Of a stretch of DNA of 64,000 nt, positions 3,249 through 49,021 are shown piece after piece. Each line of letters opens with the position of its first letter. The stretch's first letter is position 1. A program made the translations under genes and the position numbers. The DNA lies in the UHGV virus genome UHGV-0018629. One strand, written 5' to 3'. The notes beneath the pieces were generated by a model, which saw nothing but the letters and a program-made list of their open reading frames with translations, searched no databases and was not told the DNA's origin. Origin of the DNA: a virus.

Positions 3249-3710
3249 TCATTGAGTTTTAATTACTGCTTTAGAAGCCTTTCCTGGTAAACGACGACTG
3301 TTGATAATTGCCATCCTGCATTGAAGTGACGGGTCTTTGAACTTCTCATTAGGTTTACAAACCGTAAATCCAAGCCAAAGATTTCCATCAGTGATTTCTA
3401 AACGTCCAGGGCGATATTCAATTCCATCGATAAAATCTTCATCAATATCAGGACGCGGAGGCATACTCAGGAATTCATTAACTTCTAAAACATGGTCTTT
3501 TATTTTATGGAATAATTCAAAAACGTATGTCTCATCAATCTCCCGTTGAATTGCGCGATCAAGAAGATGTTGAGAATATTTTAGATGAAACGATGAGACC
3601 CCTGCTGCTTTTGATGCCTCACGAATCTCATTGTTAATTTGACGAAACTCCGACTCAAAGTGACGACGAAGCTTATTTCGACGGATAAAAACTTCTGTGT
3701 TGATAGTCAT
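3249..3710 (-). CDS. regB: RegB sequence-specific endoribonuclease
   Basis: 153 aa, N-terminus MTINTEVFIRRNKLRRHFESEF matches T4 RegB as recalled; conserved position. Confidence 0.85.
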   Translation of the reverse strand: MTINTEVFIRRNKLRRHFESEFRQINNEIREASKAAGVSSFHLKYSQHLLDRAIQREIDETYVFELFHKIKDHVLEVNEFLSMPPRPDIDEDFIDGIEYRPGRLEITDGNLWLGFTVCKPNEKFKDPSLQCRMAIINSRRLPGKASKAVIKTQ

Positions 3711-3769
3711 ATTATTCTCCTCTTAACTGATAGAAAAATTATACCACAGTCAAGAGGAAAAGTAAACAG

Positions 3770-4090
3770 TTATTCTTTAAATCTGATCAATTTATTCATA
3801 GACTTTGAAACTTCTGCACGAACCTCATGTAGATTTTTGAGCTGCTCAAGACGCTGCGCATAGTAAGCAATTTCATCTTCTTCAAGACAGTCCTGCGAAT
3901 CTTCTTTAAGATAGCGTGCATAATCCTGGAAAGCATTACGAATTACTTCTTGGAAGTCGTCAAGACTTTGAATTTTCTTAGGAGCGGAAGATACACGACG
4001 AGGTACAGTATAATACTCATAACCAAACCCTGCGCTTAATTGAGCCATTAATATTTTTCCTCTGGTTGGAACACAGCACGGCAAGCCCAC
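3770..4090 (-). CDS. Hypothetical protein (start may be at internal Met near 4048)
   Basis: ORF in regB-downstream block. Confidence 0.4.
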
Positions 4091-4314
4091 ATACTTGCTT
4101 CTTTGAGTTTCGTTTTAGCAATAGTTAACTGATCGAGACTTTCGGCATAATTCTTCGCGAGTTCATCATCTTCACAGCTATCAAATGCTTCCCAAAATTC
4201 ATCATATAAAGCATCAAAGATAAGTCCTAAACGAACTTCAGCATCTTTAATAGCATTTACTTTACCGATTTTCTCTTCAGTATGTGGCTTATAACCTTTA
4301 ATATCTTCAATCAT
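4048..4314 (-). CDS. Hypothetical acidic protein
   Basis: 88 aa ORF. Confidence 0.4.
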
Positions 4315-4528
4315 ATTTGACTTCCTCGCCAGTACCTAAATCATATTCAACTAAACGAATAGGTTCATGAATACCATATCCCTGAACAGAAATTTCTGTC
4401 GTAGGATAAATTCCATCAATATCACCCATGTTCCACGCTTCGTTAAATTGCTGTTCGCCTGAATTACTAAACCACTCGGCGAAAGCATTTAGCACATCTT
4501 TAGAACCTTCAATAATTATCTTTGCCAT
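4307..4528 (-). CDS. Hypothetical protein
   Basis: 73 aa ORF, ATGA-type overlaps with neighbours. Confidence 0.4.
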   Translation of the reverse strand: MAKIIIEGSKDVLNAFAEWFSNSGEQQFNEAWNMGDIDGIYPTTEISVQGYGIHEPIRLVEYDLGTGEEVKYD

Positions 4529-4890
4529 TACAAACTCTCGGTGAAGGTACGAGCGATAACGTCGCGCTGCTGTTCCGGAGTCAGAGAGTTAAAGCGAACT
4601 GCATAACCGGATACACGGATGGTCAGCTGCGGATATTTTTCCGGATGCTTAACTGCATCTTCCAGAGTTTCACGACGCAGAACGTTAACGTTCAGGTGTT
4701 GACCACCTTCAATTTTAACTGTAGGCTGTTGCTCAATTTCAATTTCACGGGCATGCAAACCGTAGAAAATTTCTGGGTCTACAAAAGAGTCCTCTTTAAA
4801 GGTTTTAGAGACAATAATTCGTGCTTGAATACCATCTTCAAAATAAATAGTACCTTTATGTGTGCCTTCAAGAATTTGATATGCTTTCAT
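4528..4890 (-). CDS. Autonomous glycyl radical cofactor (GrcA/YfiD-like)
   Basis: 120 aa; C-terminal [63 protein letters not shown] is the glycyl-radical module of E. coli YfiD; locally GC-rich. Confidence 0.8.
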
Positions 4891-4897
4891 ATAAACC

Positions 4898-5230
4898 TCA
4901 ATTAGAAAATAAATTTATCCAAGATTGTTCTTTAATTAAAAATGGCTCAGAATCATATGCCATTAAACTCTGGGTAATTAATCCTTTAAAAGGTCCATCA
5001 ATAAACTCCATTGTAAAATATGGAATTTTATTCATTAACCGTGCATTAGGAGCAGTACACAAAACTCTACATCCTTTGAATACGCCTTTCTGCAATTTAT
5101 ACTGCTTAGGATAAAATTCGCTCAAAATGTTGTTATTTGCTAAAATTTCAAAATGATTCACCAATTTATTTTTAATAGTTTTTGGCGAAAAATAAAGATA
5201 TTCAAAAAGCTGTGTGTCTGTCATCATTGC
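4898..5230 (-). CDS. Hypothetical protein (start set at internal Met to avoid 55-nt overlap)
   Basis: ORF 4898..5278 in track; [12 protein letters not shown] start more plausible. Confidence 0.4.
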
Positions 5231-5811
5231 ATTCCGATTACGAAAAACTGTGGACGAGTAATACCACCAATGCAGCATTTACTTTTACAGCAATGTTGCG
5301 CAGTTTCAATATGAATGTCGTAAATCTTATCCATATCAGGAGATTTAACGGGCTCATCAATTATATACAAAATTCGCGAAAGCGATAAACCTCTGAACTT
5401 GCTACCTCTATTACCAATAAAACTGCGTATAGAATCAGTAAATAAACGAAAACGTATATCATCATTAGAATAACGCGAAAATTCCTTTTTAATGTTATTT
5501 GCAGAAATTTTAGCGTAAGCTGAAGTATTAGAAAGAACAATAACTGTTCCGCCATCATACAACCAATTAGCAGCAAAGTTAGTTACTGCAGTTGATTTAC
5601 CGGATTGACGTCCACCATCTAGTCGAAGTGTGCAATACTGTTTGAGCAAGTCTTCAAATGGCGGGATATATTCGTTTTTACAAATTTCTTCTACTCTAGC
5701 GTCAGAATGGTGTGTAAAAGCATTCATCAGGGATAGATAAGGACCAGTTAAAAATGTTCTCATTTTATTCTCTCTAAATTTGGGCCATTCCGTGGCGCAT
5801 GAATTGTCCAT
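5224..5811 (-). CDS. P-loop NTPase-like protein
   Basis: 195 aa; Walker A GGRQSGKST and Walker B-like ILYIIDEP; sits where denV lies in T4. Confidence 0.5.
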   Translation of the reverse strand: MDNSCATEWPKFRENKMRTFLTGPYLSLMNAFTHHSDARVEEICKNEYIPPFEDLLKQYCTLRLDGGRQSGKSTAVTNFAANWLYDGGTVIVLSNTSAYAKISANNIKKEFSRYSNDDIRFRLFTDSIRSFIGNRGSKFRGLSLSRILYIIDEPVKSPDMDKIYDIHIETAQHCCKSKCCIGGITRPQFFVIGMQ

Positions 5812-5831
5812 TTCTGTATTTACCCATTACC
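5798..5831. repeat. 34-bp direct repeat copy 1 (catgaattgtccatttctgtatttacccattacc)
   Basis: 32/34 identical to 6446..6479; overlaps start codon of P-loop gene. Confidence 0.8.
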
Positions 5832-5916
5832 GCACTTGGGCTCGACCTTATTACAGGTTGGCGGGAATCCCTCATAGAATCATGAGGTCCAGCTTGTTCC
5901 CATATTTCTTATTTGC

Positions 5917-6390
5917 TTACTTGAATGATTTGACGTACTGAATAGAACCTTTACTATTTACAAAGGCAATTTTACCATTTTTGTTATACATGGTAGCAGT
6001 ACGCTGATAGCCATAAGTTTGTTTACCAGATTGATAACCAACTAATGCGAAATTATCTTCGCCCATTTTATTCTGTTTAGCGCGGATGCGTTCATGACCA
6101 TGCGCCATAAGAACCTTAGCATCACCAGTTGCGATGGATCTACGAGTTTTTTCATCTTCAACTGTATTAACAAAGTCGTCAAATGAATCAAATTTAGCAT
6201 GGGATTTATTATACAGTTTTCCGTCTACTGCATAATTATATCCTTGTACGTCCATCTCAACTTCTGTACCATCATCCAATACAGCAGTGATCTTTTGACC
6301 TTTTTTAAATTTCAAAAGATCAGTAAAAGATTCAGCAATAATTTGAGAATTAATAGCTGCTTCAGTAATAAATTCTTGATATGTTTTCAT
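5917..6390 (-). CDS. Internal protein with capsid-targeting sequence (ipII position)
   Basis: 157 aa; N-terminus MKTYQEFITE|AA matches the CTS/gp21-cleavage pattern of T4 internal proteins. Confidence 0.65.
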   Translation of the reverse strand: MKTYQEFITEAAINSQIIAESFTDLLKFKKGQKITAVLDDGTEVEMDVQGYNYAVDGKLYNKSHAKFDSFDDFVNTVEDEKTRRSIATGDAKVLMAHGHERIRAKQNKMGEDNFALVGYQSGKQTYGYQRTATMYNKNGKIAFVNSKGSIQYVKSFK

Positions 6391-6445
6391 GTATATCCTT
6401 TAAATGTAAATAGTTTTATTCTTTAAGTTTTGGACAATTCGCACA

Positions 6446-6479
6446 CATGAATTGTCCGTTTCTATATTTACCCATTACC
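6446..6479. repeat. 34-bp direct repeat copy 2
   Basis: 32/34 identical to 5798..5831; adjacent perfect 9-bp inverted repeat ggacaattc/gaattgtcc. Confidence 0.8.
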
Positions 6480-6498
6480 AGGTTCGAACTCGGCTTTA

Positions 6499-7080
6499 TT
6501 AAGAATTACCGCGGGCTGCATTAGCAACGGCGTAAGCGTACTGAACATTAGCGTCTTTAAACGTACCTTTAGAGGTATCTATTTCTGCCTTAAAGCCGCC
6601 TTTAGTCATAACATCGGCAAATTCTTTACGGAAAGCCATTGCATCAAGACCTTTCCATGATGATTTATGCTTGGCAAATTCAAGACCAGCATAGTTGACA
6701 GCCTTAGCTAATTTATTATCAATAACCCATTTACCAGCTTTAGGCACAAACTTCGGGCCTTTTTGTTTAGAGAACAGTTTTAAATTCCAGCGACGAAGAT
6801 CACTGTCGGCTTTAACAAAAGCTGCATCTAAGTTACTAGCAACAACATCTTCAATATGGGCAAATTTAAGTCCGTCAACTTCAATATTTAGATCGTTACG
6901 CCAGCGAAGTCCTTCCCATGCGAAGGCTTTAAAGTCAGAAGCCTTTGTAGCTAAGTACCGTTCAATAGGAGCTGTTTTAGGGTCAAAGCCGTTTCCCGAT
7001 CGATAGGTCCACTCATCTTTATTAATGCCTTTGGCCTTTACTACAGAAGCTTCAGCAATAAATTCTTGATATGTTTTCAT
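6499..7080 (-). CDS. ipIII: Internal protein III
   Basis: 193 aa; MKTYQEFIAE|A capsid-targeting N-terminus; position between e and ipII-like gene. Confidence 0.75.
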   Translation of the reverse strand: MKTYQEFIAEASVVKAKGINKDEWTYRSGNGFDPKTAPIERYLATKASDFKAFAWEGLRWRNDLNIEVDGLKFAHIEDVVASNLDAAFVKADSDLRRWNLKLFSKQKGPKFVPKAGKWVIDNKLAKAVNYAGLEFAKHKSSWKGLDAMAFRKEFADVMTKGGFKAEIDTSKGTFKDANVQYAYAVANAARGNS

Positions 7081-12674: not shown

Positions 12675-12717
12675 CTTATTTCCTGTTTTAATTCGTGGCT
12701 TTAATATACTTATTTAT

Positions 12718-12751
12718 ACTAAAAAGCCCCAACCTTTTGGTCGGGGCTAAG
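12718..12751 (-). terminator. Intrinsic terminator, repeat copy B (34/34 identical to 12163..12196)
   Basis: Perfect direct repeat. Confidence 0.75.
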
Positions 12752-13035
12752 CCTTGCGGCAACCTTGTCGGGGTTCCACCTGCTAAGGCAAGTGTTTGTA
12801 CGAAACGCCGGGATTCGAACCCGGTTATTAAGCAGTTGACGCTACTCAATATTTTTAAAAGGCCATATCTCGACCATATCCGAACGTTCCGTCGAAAACG
12901 CTACTCAGCTTACGGCAAAGATATTTCCTCGAATCGATAATTCGGTGCGCCGTTTCTGCTGTGATATAAGGGGGCATCAATAAACACAAAGATTATTAAC
13001 GCAATTCCTTACTCAGGGAACATCAGTCCGACGAC
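12752..13035 (-). ncRNA. Candidate structured non-coding region with tRNA T-arm-like hairpin (ccggg-ttcgaat-cccgg)
   Basis: No ORF above about 22 codons on the minus strand; GC content visibly above phage background; no full cloverleaf could be folded by eye. Confidence 0.3.
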
Positions 13036-13590
13036 TTACCGGTAGCGACCCGGTTTCTCATTTGGTATTTCAAATTGTGTAGATTTAGTATCTAATTTTT
13101 TAACTACGGAACTTATGTCATGAAAGAAAAACCATTCGCCATTTATATGGTCCTGATTATAAATGCTGTGCATATATTTTTCAAGTTCTACTGCATCCTG
13201 GGAATATCTAAATGATACTATTTTAAAACTTTTAAACGGTGAAAATGTATTTGCTGTTATAACTCTAACATCGGGTTCTATACTTCTTCCTATTTTATAA
13301 TAATTAGGATTTGTAGTATCTACCATTATGTATACGAAAGCCTGTCGATAGCTTTTTTCTATATCAAATTCATCTTTAAATTTCAAAAGATTTAGGGCGG
13401 CAGTCCTACAAAATACTTTCCATTTTGACAAACGTTTGGCTTCAGTCATAGAAAAGAATTTTTTCTTATCTGTTATTTTAAGAAAAGCAACATTTTCAAT
13501 TAGTTCTTGTGTTATTTCAAAATTACCATGGTATATTAATCCAGCTTTTATAGCCAAATTAATTTGGTCCCAGTCTACATCACTTCTCAT
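13036..13590 (-). CDS. T5orf172/MUG113-like (GIY-YIG-related) domain protein
   Basis: 184 aa; C-terminal half VYIMVDTTNPNYYKIGRS...R...LEKYMH...GEWFF fits the T5orf172 pattern. Confidence 0.5.
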   Translation of the reverse strand: MRSDVDWDQINLAIKAGLIYHGNFEITQELIENVAFLKITDKKKFFSMTEAKRLSKWKVFCRTAALNLLKFKDEFDIEKSYRQAFVYIMVDTTNPNYYKIGRSIEPDVRVITANTFSPFKSFKIVSFRYSQDAVELEKYMHSIYNQDHINGEWFFFHDISSVVKKLDTKSTQFEIPNEKPGRYR

Positions 13591-13611: not shown

Positions 13612-13688
13612 TGGCCAGGGTGAAAGGATTCTAACCTTTAACCTGCGGTTTAGAGGACCGCTACTCTATACAATTGAGTTACACCCCG
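13612..13688 (-). tRNA. tRNA-Arg (anticodon UCU), CCA encoded
   Basis: Hand-folded cloverleaf: acceptor cggggtg/caccctg, anticodon arm gcggt-cctctaa-accgc; atypical D- and T-loops. Confidence 0.55.
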
Positions 13689-13813
13689 TAATTAGTTCAC
13701 AGCAATACCTACTCCAACAATCAAGATGTCTTCACACGAAATTAAGAGAAGAGTGATCAGTTCAACCCTATAATCGCGTCAAGTAGATATTAATGTGACA
13801 GTTGTCACAAATT
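13689..13813 (-). ncRNA. Candidate small stable RNA between tRNA-Arg and tRNA-Asn
   Basis: 125-nt non-coding spacer in a co-transcribed tRNA cluster; contains hairpin tgtgac/gtcaca; analogous to T4 species 1/2 RNAs by position only. Confidence 0.25.
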
Positions 13814-13888
13814 TGGCGGACGTGATAGGATTCGAACCTATAACCAATCGCTTAACAGGCGATCGCTCTGCCATTGAGCTACACATCC
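13814..13888 (-). tRNA. tRNA-Asn (anticodon GUU), CCA encoded
   Basis: Cloverleaf: acceptor ggatgtg/cacgtcc, anticodon loop ctgttaa, T-loop ttcgaat. Confidence 0.75.
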
Positions 13889-13892
13889 AAAT

Positions 13893-13979
13893 TGGTGGGG
13901 AGTGATGGAGTCGAACCACCCGAGTCGCAATGACAATGGATTTACAGTCCACACCGCTACCTCTACGGGATAACTCCCC
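13893..13979 (-). tRNA. tRNA-Tyr (anticodon GUA), type II with long variable arm, CCA encoded
   Basis: Acceptor ggggagt/actcccc, anticodon loop ctgtaaa. Confidence 0.75.
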
Positions 13980-13992
13980 TTAATTCTTAATT

Positions 13993-14067
13993 TGGTGGCC
14001 CTGGGTGGAATTGAACCACCATCTGGCGATTATGAGTCGCTTGCTTGAACCTTCCAGCTACAGGGCC
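13993..14067 (-). tRNA. tRNA with CAU anticodon (Met, or Ile if lysidine-modified as in T4)
   Basis: Acceptor ggccctg/cagggcc, anticodon loop ctcataa. Confidence 0.75.
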
Positions 14068-14068
14068 T

Positions 14069-14144
14069 TGGTGCTGATTGACGGAATCGAACCGCCGACC
14101 TTCTCATTACAAGTGAGTTGCTCTACCTACTGAGCTAAATCAGC
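14069..14144 (-). tRNA. tRNA-Thr (anticodon UGU)
   Basis: Acceptor gctgatt/aatcagc, anticodon loop cttgtaa, T-loop ttcgatt. Confidence 0.75.
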
Positions 14145-14149
14145 AAAAC

Positions 14150-14239
14150 TGGCGGAGGCGATAGGATTTGAACCTATGAGTCACCGGAGCGACTGCCGGT
14201 TTTCAAGACCGGTGCATTAAACCACTCTGCCACGCCTCC
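14150..14239 (-). tRNA. tRNA-Ser (anticodon UGA), type II
   Basis: Acceptor ggaggcg/cgcctcc, anticodon arm ccggt-cttgaaa-accgg, long variable arm. Confidence 0.75.
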
Positions 14240-14245
14240 AAATAT

Positions 14246-14896
14246 TTATATATTGTTAATTTGATTTAGAATTCTTTTTGCTTGAGTATGACTTACGCCA
14301 ATATGCTTAGCATATTTAGATAATTCGCCACGCTTAGAAAAATCATATAATTTAGAAATTTCTATTCTTCTTTTTCTTTCATCCGCAGAAACTTTTGCTT
14401 CGTTTGCTTTTGCTATTTTACGTTTAGCTTCTTGAGAATGAGTTTTACCAGCAAAGCCATTCTTCATTAATCCATTTGAAGACCATCCTTTTAATTTTCC
14501 GTTAGAATGTGCCTTTTTAACACCCAATGAAATTAATTCACGTTGCTGATCTGTCATAGGATAATTATTTATATGATCCCATCCACCTTCACCTCCAAGT
14601 TTTAAATTATACACATCTGGTCTATTTAAAAACTCTTCTGTGACAATATTTTTCTCGGCTTCAAGCATAGATTCTTTATCATCAAAATACTCTAATATTT
14701 CTTTAGAAAAATTTTCTATACCATATTTATCTTGGGCTCTTTTTAATAATTTACCAGAACCCATATATCCATCATCTAAATTTTCGGTAGAATGCACACC
14801 AATATAAATTTTATTATTAATTTTATTTGTTATTTTATAAAGATAAAAATGCATATCAGTCCCTAATAAAGAACTGAGCGTCTCACGACGAGTCAT
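14246..14896 (-). CDS. segB: GIY-YIG homing endonuclease (SegB-like) inside the tRNA cluster
   Basis: 216 aa; N-terminal GIY-YIG motif YLYKITNKINNKIYIGVHST, basic C-terminal DNA-binding region; lies between tRNA-Gly and tRNA-Ser. Confidence 0.75.
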   Translation of the reverse strand: MTRRETLSSLLGTDMHFYLYKITNKINNKIYIGVHSTENLDDGYMGSGKLLKRAQDKYGIENFSKEILEYFDDKESMLEAEKNIVTEEFLNRPDVYNLKLGGEGGWDHINNYPMTDQQRELISLGVKKAHSNGKLKGWSSNGLMKNGFAGKTHSQEAKRKIAKANEAKVSADERKRRIEISKLYDFSKRGELSKYAKHIGVSHTQAKRILNQINNI

Positions 14897-14900
14897 AAAT

Positions 14901-14974
<74 letters not shown>

Positions 14975-14979
14975 AAATT

Positions 14980-15066
14980 TGGTGCGAGAAGTGGGACTCG
15001 AACCCACAAGGAAATCATTCCGCAGCATTTTAAGTGCTGTGCCTTTACCAATTTGACCATTCTCGC
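14980..15066 (-). tRNA. tRNA-Leu (anticodon UAA), type II
   Basis: Acceptor gcgagaa/ttctcgc, anticodon arm cagca-cttaaaa-tgctg. Confidence 0.75.
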
Positions 15067-15067
15067 G

Positions 15068-15140
15068 CTGGGAATAAAGGACTCGAACCTTTGCATCCTG
15101 GAATCAAAATCCAGTGCCTTACCAACTTGGCTAATTCCCA
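15068..15140 (-). tRNA. tRNA-Gln (anticodon UUG), no encoded CCA, abuts tRNA-Leu
   Basis: Acceptor tgggaat/attccca, anticodon arm ctgga-ttttgat-tccag; one nt separates it from tRNA-Leu. Confidence 0.7.
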
Positions 15141-33040: not shown

Positions 33041-34587
33041 GTAACAATACATATCAGCACGTATCAAATGAATCAAAATATGTTAAATTCGATCCAATTG
33101 GATCGAATTTTCCTGACACCGTCACTACGGTGCAGTCAGCATTATCAAAAATAAGTAATATCGGAGTAAATGGTATTCCTGACGCAACTATGGAAGTTAA
33201 AGGAATAGCAATGATTGCATCGGAGCAAGAGGTTTTAGATGGAACTAATAATTCTAAAATCGTTACACCCGCTACATTAGCAACAAGATTATTGTATCCA
33301 AATGCTACTGAAACTAAATATGGTTTAACGCGCTATTCAACAAATGAAGAAACTTTAGAAGGCTCAGATAATAATTCGTCAATAACTCCACAAAAATTGA
33401 AATACCATACTGACGATGTATTCCAAAACAGGTATTCATCTGAATCATCAAATGGAGTTATTAAAATATCATCTACGCCTGCGGCTTTGGCTGGAGTTGA
33501 TGATACTACGGCGATGACTCCGTTGAAAACCCAAAAACTCGCAATAAAATTAATTTCGCAAATAGCTCCTTCAGAAGACACAGCATCAGAATCTGTTAGA
33601 GGTGTAGTTCAGTTATCAACTGTCGCTCAAACTCGCCAAGGAACTCTTCGCGAAGGATATGCAATTTCACCGTATACCTTTATGAATTCTGTTGCAACAC
33701 AAGAATATAAGGGCGTTATACGTTTAGGAACGCAATCGGAAATTAACAGTAATTTGGGAGATGTTGCAGTAACAGGCGAAACACTAAATGGTCGAGGAGC
33801 TACTGGTTCTATGCGTGGTGTGGTAAAATTAACGACGCAAGCCGGTATTGCCCCCGAGGGTGATAGCTCTGGAGCATTAGCATGGAATGCAGATGTAATT
33901 AATACACGCGGTGGACAAACTATTAATGGTTCTTTAAATTTAGACCATCTTACAGCAAATGGAATTTGGTCGCGCGGCGGTATGTGGAAAAATGGTGATC
34001 AACCAGTTTCAACAGAACGTTACGCATCAGAAAGGGTTCCAGTTGGAACTATTATGATGTTTGCTGGAGATTCAGCTCCTCCTGGTTGGATTATGTGTCA
34101 TGGTGGAACCGTGTCAGGAGATCAATATCCTGATTATAGAAACACAGTTGGAACGAGATTTGGTGGTGATTGGAATAACCCCGGTATTCCTGATATGCGA
34201 GGTCTTTTCGTCAGAGGAGCTGGCACAGGAGGTCATATTTTAAATCAACGAGGACAAGATGGTTACGGGAAGGATAGACTTGGTGTAGGATGTGACGGAA
34301 TGCATGTTGGCGGTGTTCAAGCACAACAAATGTCATACCATAAACATGCTGGTGGTTGGGGAGAATACCAAAGACATGAAGCTCCATTTGGCGCGTCCGT
34401 TTATCAAGGATATCTTGGAACTAGAAAATATGCCGACTGGGATAATGCTTCATACTTCACTAATGATGGATTTGAATTAGGTGGACCGAGAGATGCCCTT
34501 GGTACGCTTAATCGTGAAGGATTAATTGGTTATGAAACTAGACCATGGAATATATCATTAAACTATATTATTAAAATTCATTACTAA
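33037..34587 (+). CDS. 12: Short tail fibre gp12
   Basis: 516 aa, synteny between 11 and wac. Confidence 0.85.
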
Positions 34588-47407: not shown

Positions 47408-48973
47408 ATGACTATCAAAACTAAAGCTGAACTTTTGAACAAATGGAAGCCATTACTGGAAGGTGAAGGTTTACCGGAAATTGCTAATAGCAAACAAGCG
47501 ATTATCGCTAAAATCTTTGAAAACCAGGAAAAAGATTTCCAGACAGCTCCAGAATATAAAGACGAAAAAATCGCTCAGGCATTCGGTTCTTTCTTAACAG
47601 AAGCTGAAATCGGTGGTGACCACGGTTACAATGCTACTAACATCGCTGCTGGTCAGACTTCTGGCGCAGTAACTCAGATTGGCCCAGCTGTTATGGGTAT
47701 GGTACGTCGTGCTATTCCTAACCTGATTGCTTTCGATATTTGCGGTGTTCAGCCGATGAACAGCCCGACTGGCCAGGTATTCGCACTTCGCGCAGTATAT
47801 GGTAAAGACCCAATCGCTTCCGGTGCTAAAGAAGCATTCCACCCAATGTATGGTCCAGATGCAATGTTCTCTGGTCAGGGTGCTGCTAAGAAATTCGCTG
47901 CTTTGAAAGCGAGTGATACTCTTGAAGTTGGAACTATTTACACCCACTTCTTCCAGGAAACTGGTACTGTGTATCTGCAAGCTACAGAAGCTAAACAAAT
48001 TGATTCCGGTGCATCTGACGCAGCTAAATTAGATGCTGAAATTAAGAAACAAATGGAAGCTGGTGTACTGGTAGAAATCGCTGAAGGTATGGCTACTTCT
48101 ATCGCTGAACTTCAGGAAGGTTTCAACGGTTCTACCGATAACCCATGGAATGAAATGGGCTTCCGTATCGATAAACAAGTTATCGAAGCTAAATCTCGTC
48201 AGCTGAAAGCTGCTTACTCTATCGAATTAGCACAAGACCTCCGCGCCGTTCATGGTATGGATGCTGATGCTGAACTGTCTGGTATTCTGGCTACCGAAAT
48301 CATGCTGGAAATCAACCGTGAAGTTGTTGATTGGATTAACTACTCAGCTCAGGTTGGTAAATCTGGTATGACCCTGACTCCGGGTTCTAAAGCTGGTGTA
48401 TTTGACTTCCAGGATCCGATTGATATTCGTGGTGCTCGCTGGGCAGGTGAATCCTTTAAAGCTCTGTTGTTCCAGATTGACAAAGAAGCAGTTGAAATTG
48501 CTCGTCAAACCGGTCGTGGTGAAGGTAACTTCATTATCGCTTCCCGTAACGTAGTTAACGTTCTGGCTTCAGTTGATACTGGCATTTCTTATGCTGCGCA
48601 GGGTCTGGCTACTGGATTTAACACTGATACTACCAAGTCAGTATTTGCTGGTGTTCTGGGTGGTAAATACCGTGTATATATCGACCAGTATGCTAAACAA
48701 GATTATTTCACTGTAGGTTATAAAGGTCCGAACGAAATGGATGCTGGTATTTACTATGCTCCATATGTAGCTCTGACTCCGCTGCGTGGTTCTGATCCGA
48801 AGAACTTCCAACCAGTAATGGGATTCAAAACTCGTTACGGTATTGGTATCAACCCATTTGCAGAATCCGCTGCTCAGGCTCCGGCTTCTCGCATTCAGAG
48901 CGGTATGCCTTCTATTCTGAATAGCCTTGGTAAAAACGCTTACTTCCGCCGTGTATATGTTAAAGGTATCTAA
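47408..48973 (+). CDS. 23: Major capsid protein gp23
   Basis: 521 aa, T4 gp23 length; biased codon usage and higher GC typical of a highly expressed late gene. Confidence 0.97.
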   Translation: MTIKTKAELLNKWKPLLEGEGLPEIANSKQAIIAKIFENQEKDFQTAPEYKDEKIAQAFGSFLTEAEIGGDHGYNATNIAAGQTSGAVTQIGPAVMGMVRRAIPNLIAFDICGVQPMNSPTGQVFALRAVYGKDPIASGAKEAFHPMYGPDAMFSGQGAAKKFAALKASDTLEVGTIYTHFFQETGTVYLQATEAKQIDSGASDAAKLDAEIKKQMEAGVLVEIAEGMATSIAELQEGFNGSTDNPWNEMGFRIDKQVIEAKSRQLKAAYSIELAQDLRAVHGMDADAELSGILATEIMLEINREVVDWINYSAQVGKSGMTLTPGSKAGVFDFQDPIDIRGARWAGESFKALLFQIDKEAVEIARQTGRGEGNFIIASRNVVNVLASVDTGISYAAQGLATGFNTDTTKSVFAGVLGGKYRVYIDQYAKQDYFTVGYKGPNEMDAGIYYAPYVALTPLRGSDPKNFQPVMGFKTRYGIGINPFAESAAQAPASRIQSGMPSILNSLGKNAYFRRVYVKGI

Positions 48974-48987
48974 TCTTTGACGATTTA

Positions 48988-49012
48988 AGGGACCTTCGGG
49001 TCCCTTTAGTTG
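48988..49012 (+). terminator. Intrinsic terminator after gene 23 (agggacc-ttcg-ggtccct + T-rich)
   Basis: UUCG-tetraloop hairpin followed by ttagttgttttt. Confidence 0.65.
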
Positions 49013-49021
49013 TTTTTATGG

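Follow-up and report, generated by a model that had tools for sequence, protein, structure and literature searches.

The T4-type phage gene vs.6 as a probable mosaic of an old phage gene and a patch of Escherichia coli grcA DNA

Our results indicate that a small gene of a T4-type phage is the orthologue of T4 vs.6, a probable spare part for host pyruvate formate-lyase (PFL), and that it would be a mosaic produced by patch conversion with Escherichia coli grcA, a replacement that appears to have taken place independently in the Klebsiella phages of the genus Jiaodavirus. We put the probability of this reading at about 85%. Particularly, the view of vs.6 as an old phage homologue of grcA whose glycyl-radical module was overwritten by host DNA appears well supported by nucleotide-level comparison with both sides. 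The window, i.e. the whole stretch of DNA analysed, is 64 kb long and corresponds to a Tequatrovirus (T4-type) genome; the features of the locus are collected in Table 1.

Table 1. Position of vs.6 and of its parts in the 64-kb window
Feature	Position	Strand	Basis
vs.6 / Y06I orthologue CDS, 120-aa GrcA-like autonomous glycyl-radical cofactor	4528..4890	-	ORF, phage homologues, Pfam/NCBIfam/PDB matches
Gene's 5' half, AT-rich, phage-type	4714..4890	-	GC 34.5%, GC3 0.22; 46% nt identity to grcA 5' half
Putatively host-derived tract, most of the structured glycyl-radical domain	4544..4712	-	169-nt exact match to E. coli grcA nt 200-368
Gene's 3' edge, last five codons and stop, overlapping the vs.5 start region	4528..4543	-	Five synonymous differences from grcA: TTC, ACC, GAG, AGT, TTG
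RVSGYAV glycyl-radical motif	4597..4617	-	Read in ORF; radical glycine G95 = GGT codon, 4606-4608
GAGG Shine-Dalgarno of vs.6	4896..4899	-	Direct sequence reading; overlaps vs.7 TGA stop (4898-4900)

The open reading frame is intact, running over 120 codons from ATG to TAA. Its DNA is 100% identical to a gene annotated as autonomous glycyl radical cofactor in Escherichia phage vB_EcoM_FJ1 and 99.7% identical to the gene of the same name in Yersinia phage phiD1, and 926 phage records cover at least 80% of it. The encoded protein shares 118 of its 120 residues (98%) with T4 Vs.6 (Y06I, NP_049730), which has the same length, lies likewise between vs.5 and vs.7, and shows the same mosaic junction and E. 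coli-derived tract. The window protein differs from it in having Q54 instead of P and R73 instead of H, and its gene bears three additional synonymous changes near the 3' end (TTC, ACC and GAG). The neighbouring ORFs follow the T4 order vs.1, regB, vs.3, vs.4, vs.5, vs.6, vs.7, vs.8, and the order of the regB-vs.3-vs.8 cluster, all on one strand, agrees with the annotations of T4, FJ1, fHoEco02 and Mosigvirus. The sequence-only reading of this DNA had already pointed to Y06I as a homologue and held that the gene was not new, and both protein identity and locus agree with it.

Within the cluster, the last A of the vs.6 stop codon is shared with the vs.5 start codon (TAATG). A scan of positions 3600-6600 for promoters and terminators returned counts no higher than those of shuffled controls. 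As a member of a phage gene cluster, vs.6 also differs in its expression from E. coli grcA, which has its own promoter in the host.

Two further observations concern the same neighbourhood. An 88-aa ORF at 4048-4314 (minus strand), which takes the place of T4 vs.4 and is the second gene downstream of vs.6, matches the Acb2/Tad1 hairpin domain PF24729 (E=8e-20), the domain of the anti-CBASS cyclic-nucleotide sponge family. On the other side, the minus-strand ORFs at 5917-6390 and 6499-7080 (157 and 193 aa) have a common leader, MKTYQEFI(T/A)EA, which resembles the sequence that targets the internal proteins of T4 to the capsid. Over 5900-6260 identity to T4 falls to about 40%, which indicates a gene different from that of T4 at this place.

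The assignment to the GrcA/YfiD type of autonomous glycyl-radical cofactor, also made from the sequence alone, is borne out by Pfam, NCBIfam and PDB matches. PF01228 (Gly_radical) is the sole Pfam domain (residues 60-101, E=2.5e-18) of a stand-alone protein of about 14 kDa that contains little beyond it. The RVSGYAV loop, at residues 92-98, aligns to YfiD and to PFL residues 697-759, with G95 equivalent to PflB G734 and YfiD G102 (our alignments and PMC8683613). Among solved structures, the top match is the NMR structure of E. coli YfiD/GrcA (PDB 6OWR, E=9e-42, residues 22-120), followed by PFL residues 697-759. In a phmmer comparison, query residues 58-120 match the C-terminal domain of PflB (about residues 693-759; PDB 2PFL and 1H16) with E=5e-26. 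This is the portion of the enzyme that the spare part replaces (PMC8683613), and it is like vs.6 in fold and motif. In PflB, however, it forms part of a 759-residue enzyme and has diverged from GrcA and Vs.6, scoring 94 bits versus 145 for YfiD.

The subfamily to which the protein belongs deserves some qualification. Against NCBIfam TIGR04365 ('spare_glycyl') it scores 154.9 bits (E=1.2e-45, residues 20-120), under the equivalog cutoff of 170 bits, and E. coli GrcA scores 233.9; the lower score is due to the divergent N-terminal half, which has 59 residues in vs.6 versus 66 in GrcA and is remotely similar. On this model, vs.6 is best described as a GrcA homologue of a phage subfamily and not as a strict equivalog. 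It also falls outside the short GrcA2 and GrcA3 forms of about 80 aa (NF008341 and NF038360; 94 and 106 bits versus cutoffs of 145 and 158), since its 59-residue N-terminal half is unlike those proteins, which consist of the radical domain only.

At the nucleotide level, the two halves of the gene differ. Residues 61-120 are all identical to E. coli GrcA residues 68-127, and of the C-terminal 63 residues, including RVSGYAV, for which a match to GrcA had been claimed from the sequence alone, 61 are identical. The underlying DNA (gene nt 179-363) is 97.3% identical to grcA in the best matches listed and 95-99% identical in 5426 of 5426 complete E. coli genomes; exact runs reach 169 nt in the window and 175 nt in phage fHoEco02 and Mosigvirus RPN187. 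If 15-20% of sites are assumed to differ, as they do among unrelated lineages sharing the same protein module, two or fewer differences in 171 nt have a chance of 4e-10 to 3e-14. The sequence-only reading would have been refuted by a nucleotide identity to host grcA no greater than expected of an ancient phage gene; the identity observed greatly exceeds that level. When the full 64 kb was compared by megablast with the 5426 E. coli genomes, the vs.6 tract was the only part that matched chromosomes; the other match listed is a tRNA-Tyr match to a plasmid record.

Composition changes along with identity. The last 186 nt of the gene have 48.9% GC and a GC3 of 0.45, a content reached by 0.8% of the 186-nt windows in the 64 kb (mean 35.9%, sd 4.5%), whereas the first 177 nt have the phage-type composition given in Table 1. 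The GC-rich patch in which the gene was thought to be embedded therefore lies inside the gene and is confined to its 3' half.

Some other observations belong to the same searches. The vs.6 tract accounts for the lone chromosomal match obtained when T4-like genomes are searched by blastn against E. coli. The tRNA-Tyr region (13890-13983) is 90.5% identical to the plasmid record, from E. coli O111:H8 (H187), and lies among nine tRNA genes on the minus strand at 13612-15140 (Arg, Asn, Tyr, Met, Thr, Ser, Gly, Leu and Gln); this cluster overlaps the top GC peak of the window (13737-14269), and a second patch (12690-13071) lies just outside it. More GC-rich patches, with up to 52.7% GC in 186-nt windows, occur at 47517-49016 and 33684-34452, and for these megablast gave no match to E. 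coli genomes.

One explanation for such a resemblance, which takes the sequence-only reading to the letter, is that the whole gene was recently captured from an enterobacterial host. The almost complete identity of the 3' half to E. coli grcA would agree with it, as would the alignment of the protein to GrcA over residues 20-120. Nevertheless, the 5' 177 nt are 46% identical to grcA with a GC3 of 0.22, and no match to this half was found in the 5426 complete E. coli genomes. It is instead a phage sequence: 814 phage records match it, 812 of them over at least 80% of its length and, among these, 474 at 95% identity or more, and it is kept in T4-like genera that have no recent host tract, such as CC31. 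Its likeness to the GrcA N-terminus is a remote one at the protein level, with AR.IV.K, F.ED and RE kept. In addition, homology to E. coli grcA ends within the last five codons of the gene, and host flanks are absent beyond the stop codon. A three-way DNA alignment locates the change precisely: codon 60 (ATT) closes the part with about 46% identity to grcA and codon 61 (GAA) opens the part with about 100%, and GC3 also steps from 0.22 to 0.45 at this point. This sharp step refutes capture of the whole gene, to which we give very little credence; acquisition from the host holds for the GC-rich 3' 170-185 nt or so and fails for the gene as a whole.

The left junction is identical in Tequatrovirus and Mosigvirus. 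A different breakpoint in Mosigvirus, suggested by blastn alignments starting at grcA nt 155-162, was discarded because a base-by-base display shows the same junction. At the opposite end, the positions of the 3' edge differ among phages and the tract upstream is constant; the edge may be constrained by the ribosome-binding site of vs.5. The left junction, which corresponds to YfiD residue 67/68, adjoins the reported domain boundary of YfiD: residues 1-60, a disordered part, contribute to binding and activation, and residues 61-127 share their fold with PFL residues 693-759 (PMC8683613). The replaced part would thus be, in effect, the structured radical domain.

With respect to the direction of transfer, the step in composition and identity is seen in the phage gene and not in E. 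coli grcA. When the two halves of E. coli grcA are compared with those of Escherichia sp., Citrobacter, Salmonella and Klebsiella, identity ranges over 84-99% for the 5' half and likewise 84-99% for the 3' half, a parallel divergence that fits vertical descent in bacteria. These comparisons point to a transfer from host to phage.

A second explanation would dispense with transfer, namely that vs.6 is an ancient phage gene and that its likeness to grcA is maintained by purifying selection on the glycyl-radical domain alone. In this regard, the protein of the 61-residue module is indeed almost invariant across Enterobacterales and in many phages. Selection on the protein, however, does not preserve synonymous sites, and where the same or nearly the same module protein is found elsewhere, in bacteria or phages, its DNA is just 70-92% identical (77-92% to E. 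coli for other genera of Enterobacterales). Synonymous divergence (dS), computed over the 57-codon tract, makes this point clearly. Relative to E. coli, dS is 0 for T4, fHoEco02 and Mosigvirus RPN187, and 0.048 (two synonymous changes) for the window. It reaches 0.38 between E. coli and Citrobacter, 0.60 between E. coli and Klebsiella pneumoniae and 1.13 between E. coli and Salmonella, with the tract protein nearly unchanged among these bacteria. Of 43 synonymous sites, Tequatrovirus and Mosigvirus tracts thus differ from E. coli at 0-3, against a dS of about 1.2 or more in RB16-like, RB43-like and CC31-like phages, which refutes selection on the protein as the sole cause and leaves it hardly credible. 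The same distances narrow the donor. The window module is 96.8% identical to E. coli, which places it closer to E. coli grcA than E. coli itself is to Citrobacter (92.5%) or Salmonella (84.4%), and the comparison supports Escherichia as the probable donor of the window tract.

Nor is it conceivable, to any appreciable degree, that the tract is an assembly artefact arising from host DNA contamination. The host identity itself is all that speaks for it. The T4 reference genome and over 500 phages sequenced independently show the same mosaic and junction, the reading frame runs through unbroken, and the codons of the 3' edge are peculiar to phages, so that this explanation is refuted.

The tract also appears to be young. 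Between the window and Mosigvirus, dS is 0.34-0.48 in the 5' half and 0.05-0.125 in the tract. Sliding identity peaks in the tract, where it reaches 97-100%, and lies near 70% in vs.5 and at 42-88% in vs.7. The tract is accordingly younger than the split between Tequatrovirus and Mosigvirus.

A comparable replacement is seen in phages of another host. In the phage database, identity to E. coli grcA is 95% or more in 506 records, those listed being Tequatrovirus and Mosigvirus from Escherichia, Shigella and related hosts. Identity to K. pneumoniae grcA is 95-99% in another 77, those listed having genomes of about 165-168 kb and coming almost all from Klebsiella. The vs.6 gene of the Klebsiella phages of the genus Jiaodavirus is like that of the window in locus and in the left junction of its tract. 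Unlike it, the Jiaodavirus gene carries a different, more GC-rich tract (GC3 0.58) attributable to a K. pneumoniae donor, with the Klebsiella-type residues LLDAVEH in place of LEDAVKH, and its 5' half is strongly diverged from that of the window (dS about 1.9). Out of 174 positions, phage KPV15 (L029) differs from K. pneumoniae grcA at 6, with an exact run of 140 nt, and phage Mineola at 11, against 22 differences between the E. coli and K. pneumoniae genes. The Klebsiella donor in this comparison is one K. pneumoniae chromosome, mislabelled as a plasmid in PLSDB. In the scan of species-representative genomes, among whose 80 closest GrcA loci K. pneumoniae itself is absent, the locus nearest to Jiaodavirus is that of Pseudocitrobacter, at 93.6%. 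Separate E. coli and K. pneumoniae tracts indicate that host-to-phage replacement has happened at least twice, each time from the lineage's own host. They support an independent replacement in Klebsiella phages from K. pneumoniae grcA, the module apparently tracking the host. As a side observation, no tract comes nearer to K. pneumoniae grcA than that of KPV15, and in this genome (1501-1859) the 5' half of vs.6 is one base shorter than in Mineola, a frameshift or a sequencing error.

How often the replacement has occurred is a matter on which we are more reserved. Several phages of two genera lie at zero synonymous distance from E. coli and show private changes among themselves, a star-like pattern centred on E. 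coli that leans toward repeated conversion or a very recent event. Our preference, a slight one, is for a vs.6 module in concerted evolution with the grcA of the current host, through recurrent patch gene conversion from chromosomal DNA of the host during lytic infection. Conversion of this kind would reinforce itself, because each round restores about 170 nt of perfect homology. The competing account, one transfer into the ancestor of the E. coli T-even phages and one into Jiaodavirus, each followed by spread through phage-phage recombination, is a possible one that we hold tentatively at less than even odds. T-even phages recombine very actively with one another, and the left junctions are identical in Tequatrovirus and Mosigvirus; an identical junction is, however, also expected under repeated conversion, because host homology begins exactly there. 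Likewise, the 3'-edge variants GAG and AGT are common to several phages and absent from E. coli, which suits a single transfer with later spread, and the star pattern stands against it.

Whatever its frequency, conversion is not universal. A recent host tract is absent from some T4-like phages of E. coli, among them RB49, which is 75.7% identical to E. coli grcA. The modules of T5-like phages are 69-75% identical to any bacterial grcA sampled and, taken together with other T4-like genera, these phages do not exceed 84% identity to any sampled bacterial grcA, so there is no evidence for recent exchange in them. RB16-like, RB43-like and CC31-like copies, together with those of the IMG/VR T4-like phages L015-L021 (142-181 kb), are old, with a dS of about 1.2 or more. 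The modules of the latter phages are at most 84% identical to any sampled bacterium, with saturated dS, and keep E. coli-type (LEDAVKH) or Klebsiella-type (LLDAVEH) residues, which may be traces of older host-matched replacements.

Other viral records in the search extend the picture beyond enterobacteria. Records L022-L027, L034, L039 and L041 (about 32-154 kb, some from human-associated metagenomes) carry 130-aa GrcA-like genes with an NPDKYPQ variant that is also found in Haemophilus parainfluenzae grcA (L144). Their top DNA matches, at about 79-84%, are mostly to grcA of Pasteurellaceae (Haemophilus, Gallibacterium and Aggregatibacter), a hint that phages of other hosts may be matched to them in the same way. 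Two sets of candidates were set aside. Record L032 has 91% identity to Yersinia grcA and aligns with query residues 24-120 at 71%, as E. coli GrcA does; it is probably a bacterial grcA on a contig mis-called as viral. Records L073-L083 have modules that end in TFTQSM or TFTQTM and contain an MNREMLLDAME segment; these we take to be marks of the PflB C-terminus, and the records were treated as pflB ends.

As a mechanism, these observations may be put together as follows. Codons 1-60 would descend from an old AT-rich phage homologue of grcA, and homologous recombination with host DNA (patch gene conversion) would have placed E. coli grcA sequence in codons 61 to about 116. The left limit of this patch would be the point where the conserved EGGQH segment starts, and the last few codons would set its right limit. 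A replacement with the same left boundary would have occurred in Jiaodavirus, with K. pneumoniae grcA as donor.

Knowledge of the gene and of its biochemical role dates back to 2001, and our analysis adds no new function. In the account of PMC8683613 that cites Wagner et al. (2001), YfiD and T4 Y06I are the two validated spare parts, and Y06I in vitro received a radical from PFL-activating enzyme, formed a complex with oxygen-cleaved PFL and restored its activity. The 98% identity to Y06I suggests the same activity for the window protein. In the host cell, PflA would put the radical on Gly95, which lies within the RVSGYAV loop. Once activated, the 14-kDa protein would dock on host PFL cleaved by oxygen at Gly734 and stand in for the lost C-terminal radical domain, restoring the conversion of pyruvate to acetyl-CoA and formate. 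The presumed benefit is that a phage copy would keep PFL active in microaerobic or anaerobic infection, providing ATP, acetyl-CoA and formate. T4 shuts off host transcription, so that a phage-expressed copy would maintain PFL. Formate is the reductant of class III ribonucleotide reductase, an enzyme that T4 encodes for itself.

It could be argued that in vivo vs.6 serves another glycyl-radical enzyme, e.g. phage NrdD, or acts as a decoy titrating PFL-activating enzyme, and not as a repair part for PFL. A comparative paper of 2006, which notes the Pfam domain only, proposed a role in nucleotide metabolism from the common Gly_radical domain (PMC1524935), and the N-terminal half of vs.6 is far from that of YfiD, which mediates YfiD partner binding. 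On the other hand, the radical domain is that of GrcA, a module fitted to PflB, with 94 bits versus PFL 697-759 and at most 50 bits versus other glycyl-radical enzymes, and Y06I restored cleaved PFL in vitro in the report of Wagner et al. (2001) as given in PMC8683613. Moreover, the module has repeatedly been replaced by the host's own PFL spare part, which favours host PFL and its activase as partners and speaks against the phage reductase. We therefore consider a different partner improbable and retain PFL repair as the likely function, with the proviso that, since the divergent N-terminal half is the binding half in YfiD (PMC8683613), kinetics and even partner could differ.

An observation on the requirement for the gene comes from phage RB55 (L168, KM607002), where at about 1322-1672 a 13-nt deletion in vs.6 removes GGTTATGCAGTTC, with the codons for GYAV in the radical motif, and causes a frameshift; this record carries no annotation for the gene. 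The deletion suggests that vs.6 is dispensable in laboratory propagation.

A comparable case is psbA of marine cyanophages, a host/phage mosaic in which intragenic patches are exchanged with the host copy and leave visible GC steps. Both are host-derived auxiliary metabolic genes in lytic T4-like phages. They differ in gene, pathway and hosts, and in that the vs.6 patch corresponds to one structural domain with near-zero divergence from the host. In the searchable literature no earlier description of the nucleotide-level mosaic or of the host tracking of vs.6 was found, the papers returned being functional ones besides the comparative paper of 2006, although an earlier mention is possible.

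Taken together, what our analysis adds is evolutionary: a strictly lytic T4-type phage appears to carry a stretch of about 170 nt of letter-for-letter host DNA that corresponds to a single structural domain, and in each of two host genera the phages have the version of their own host. In a model system that has been studied thoroughly, this would be a clear case, open to quantification, of gene conversion from host to virulent phage. It also suggests that the module is required to fit the PFL and activase of the host or, failing that, that the host copy overwrites it time and again. If conversion is indeed recurrent, the vs.6 segment would constitute a built-in record of the recent hosts of T-even phages and a natural assay of recombination between host and virulent phage, and marked grcA alleles might be used experimentally to measure the rate at which T-even phages recombine with host DNA.
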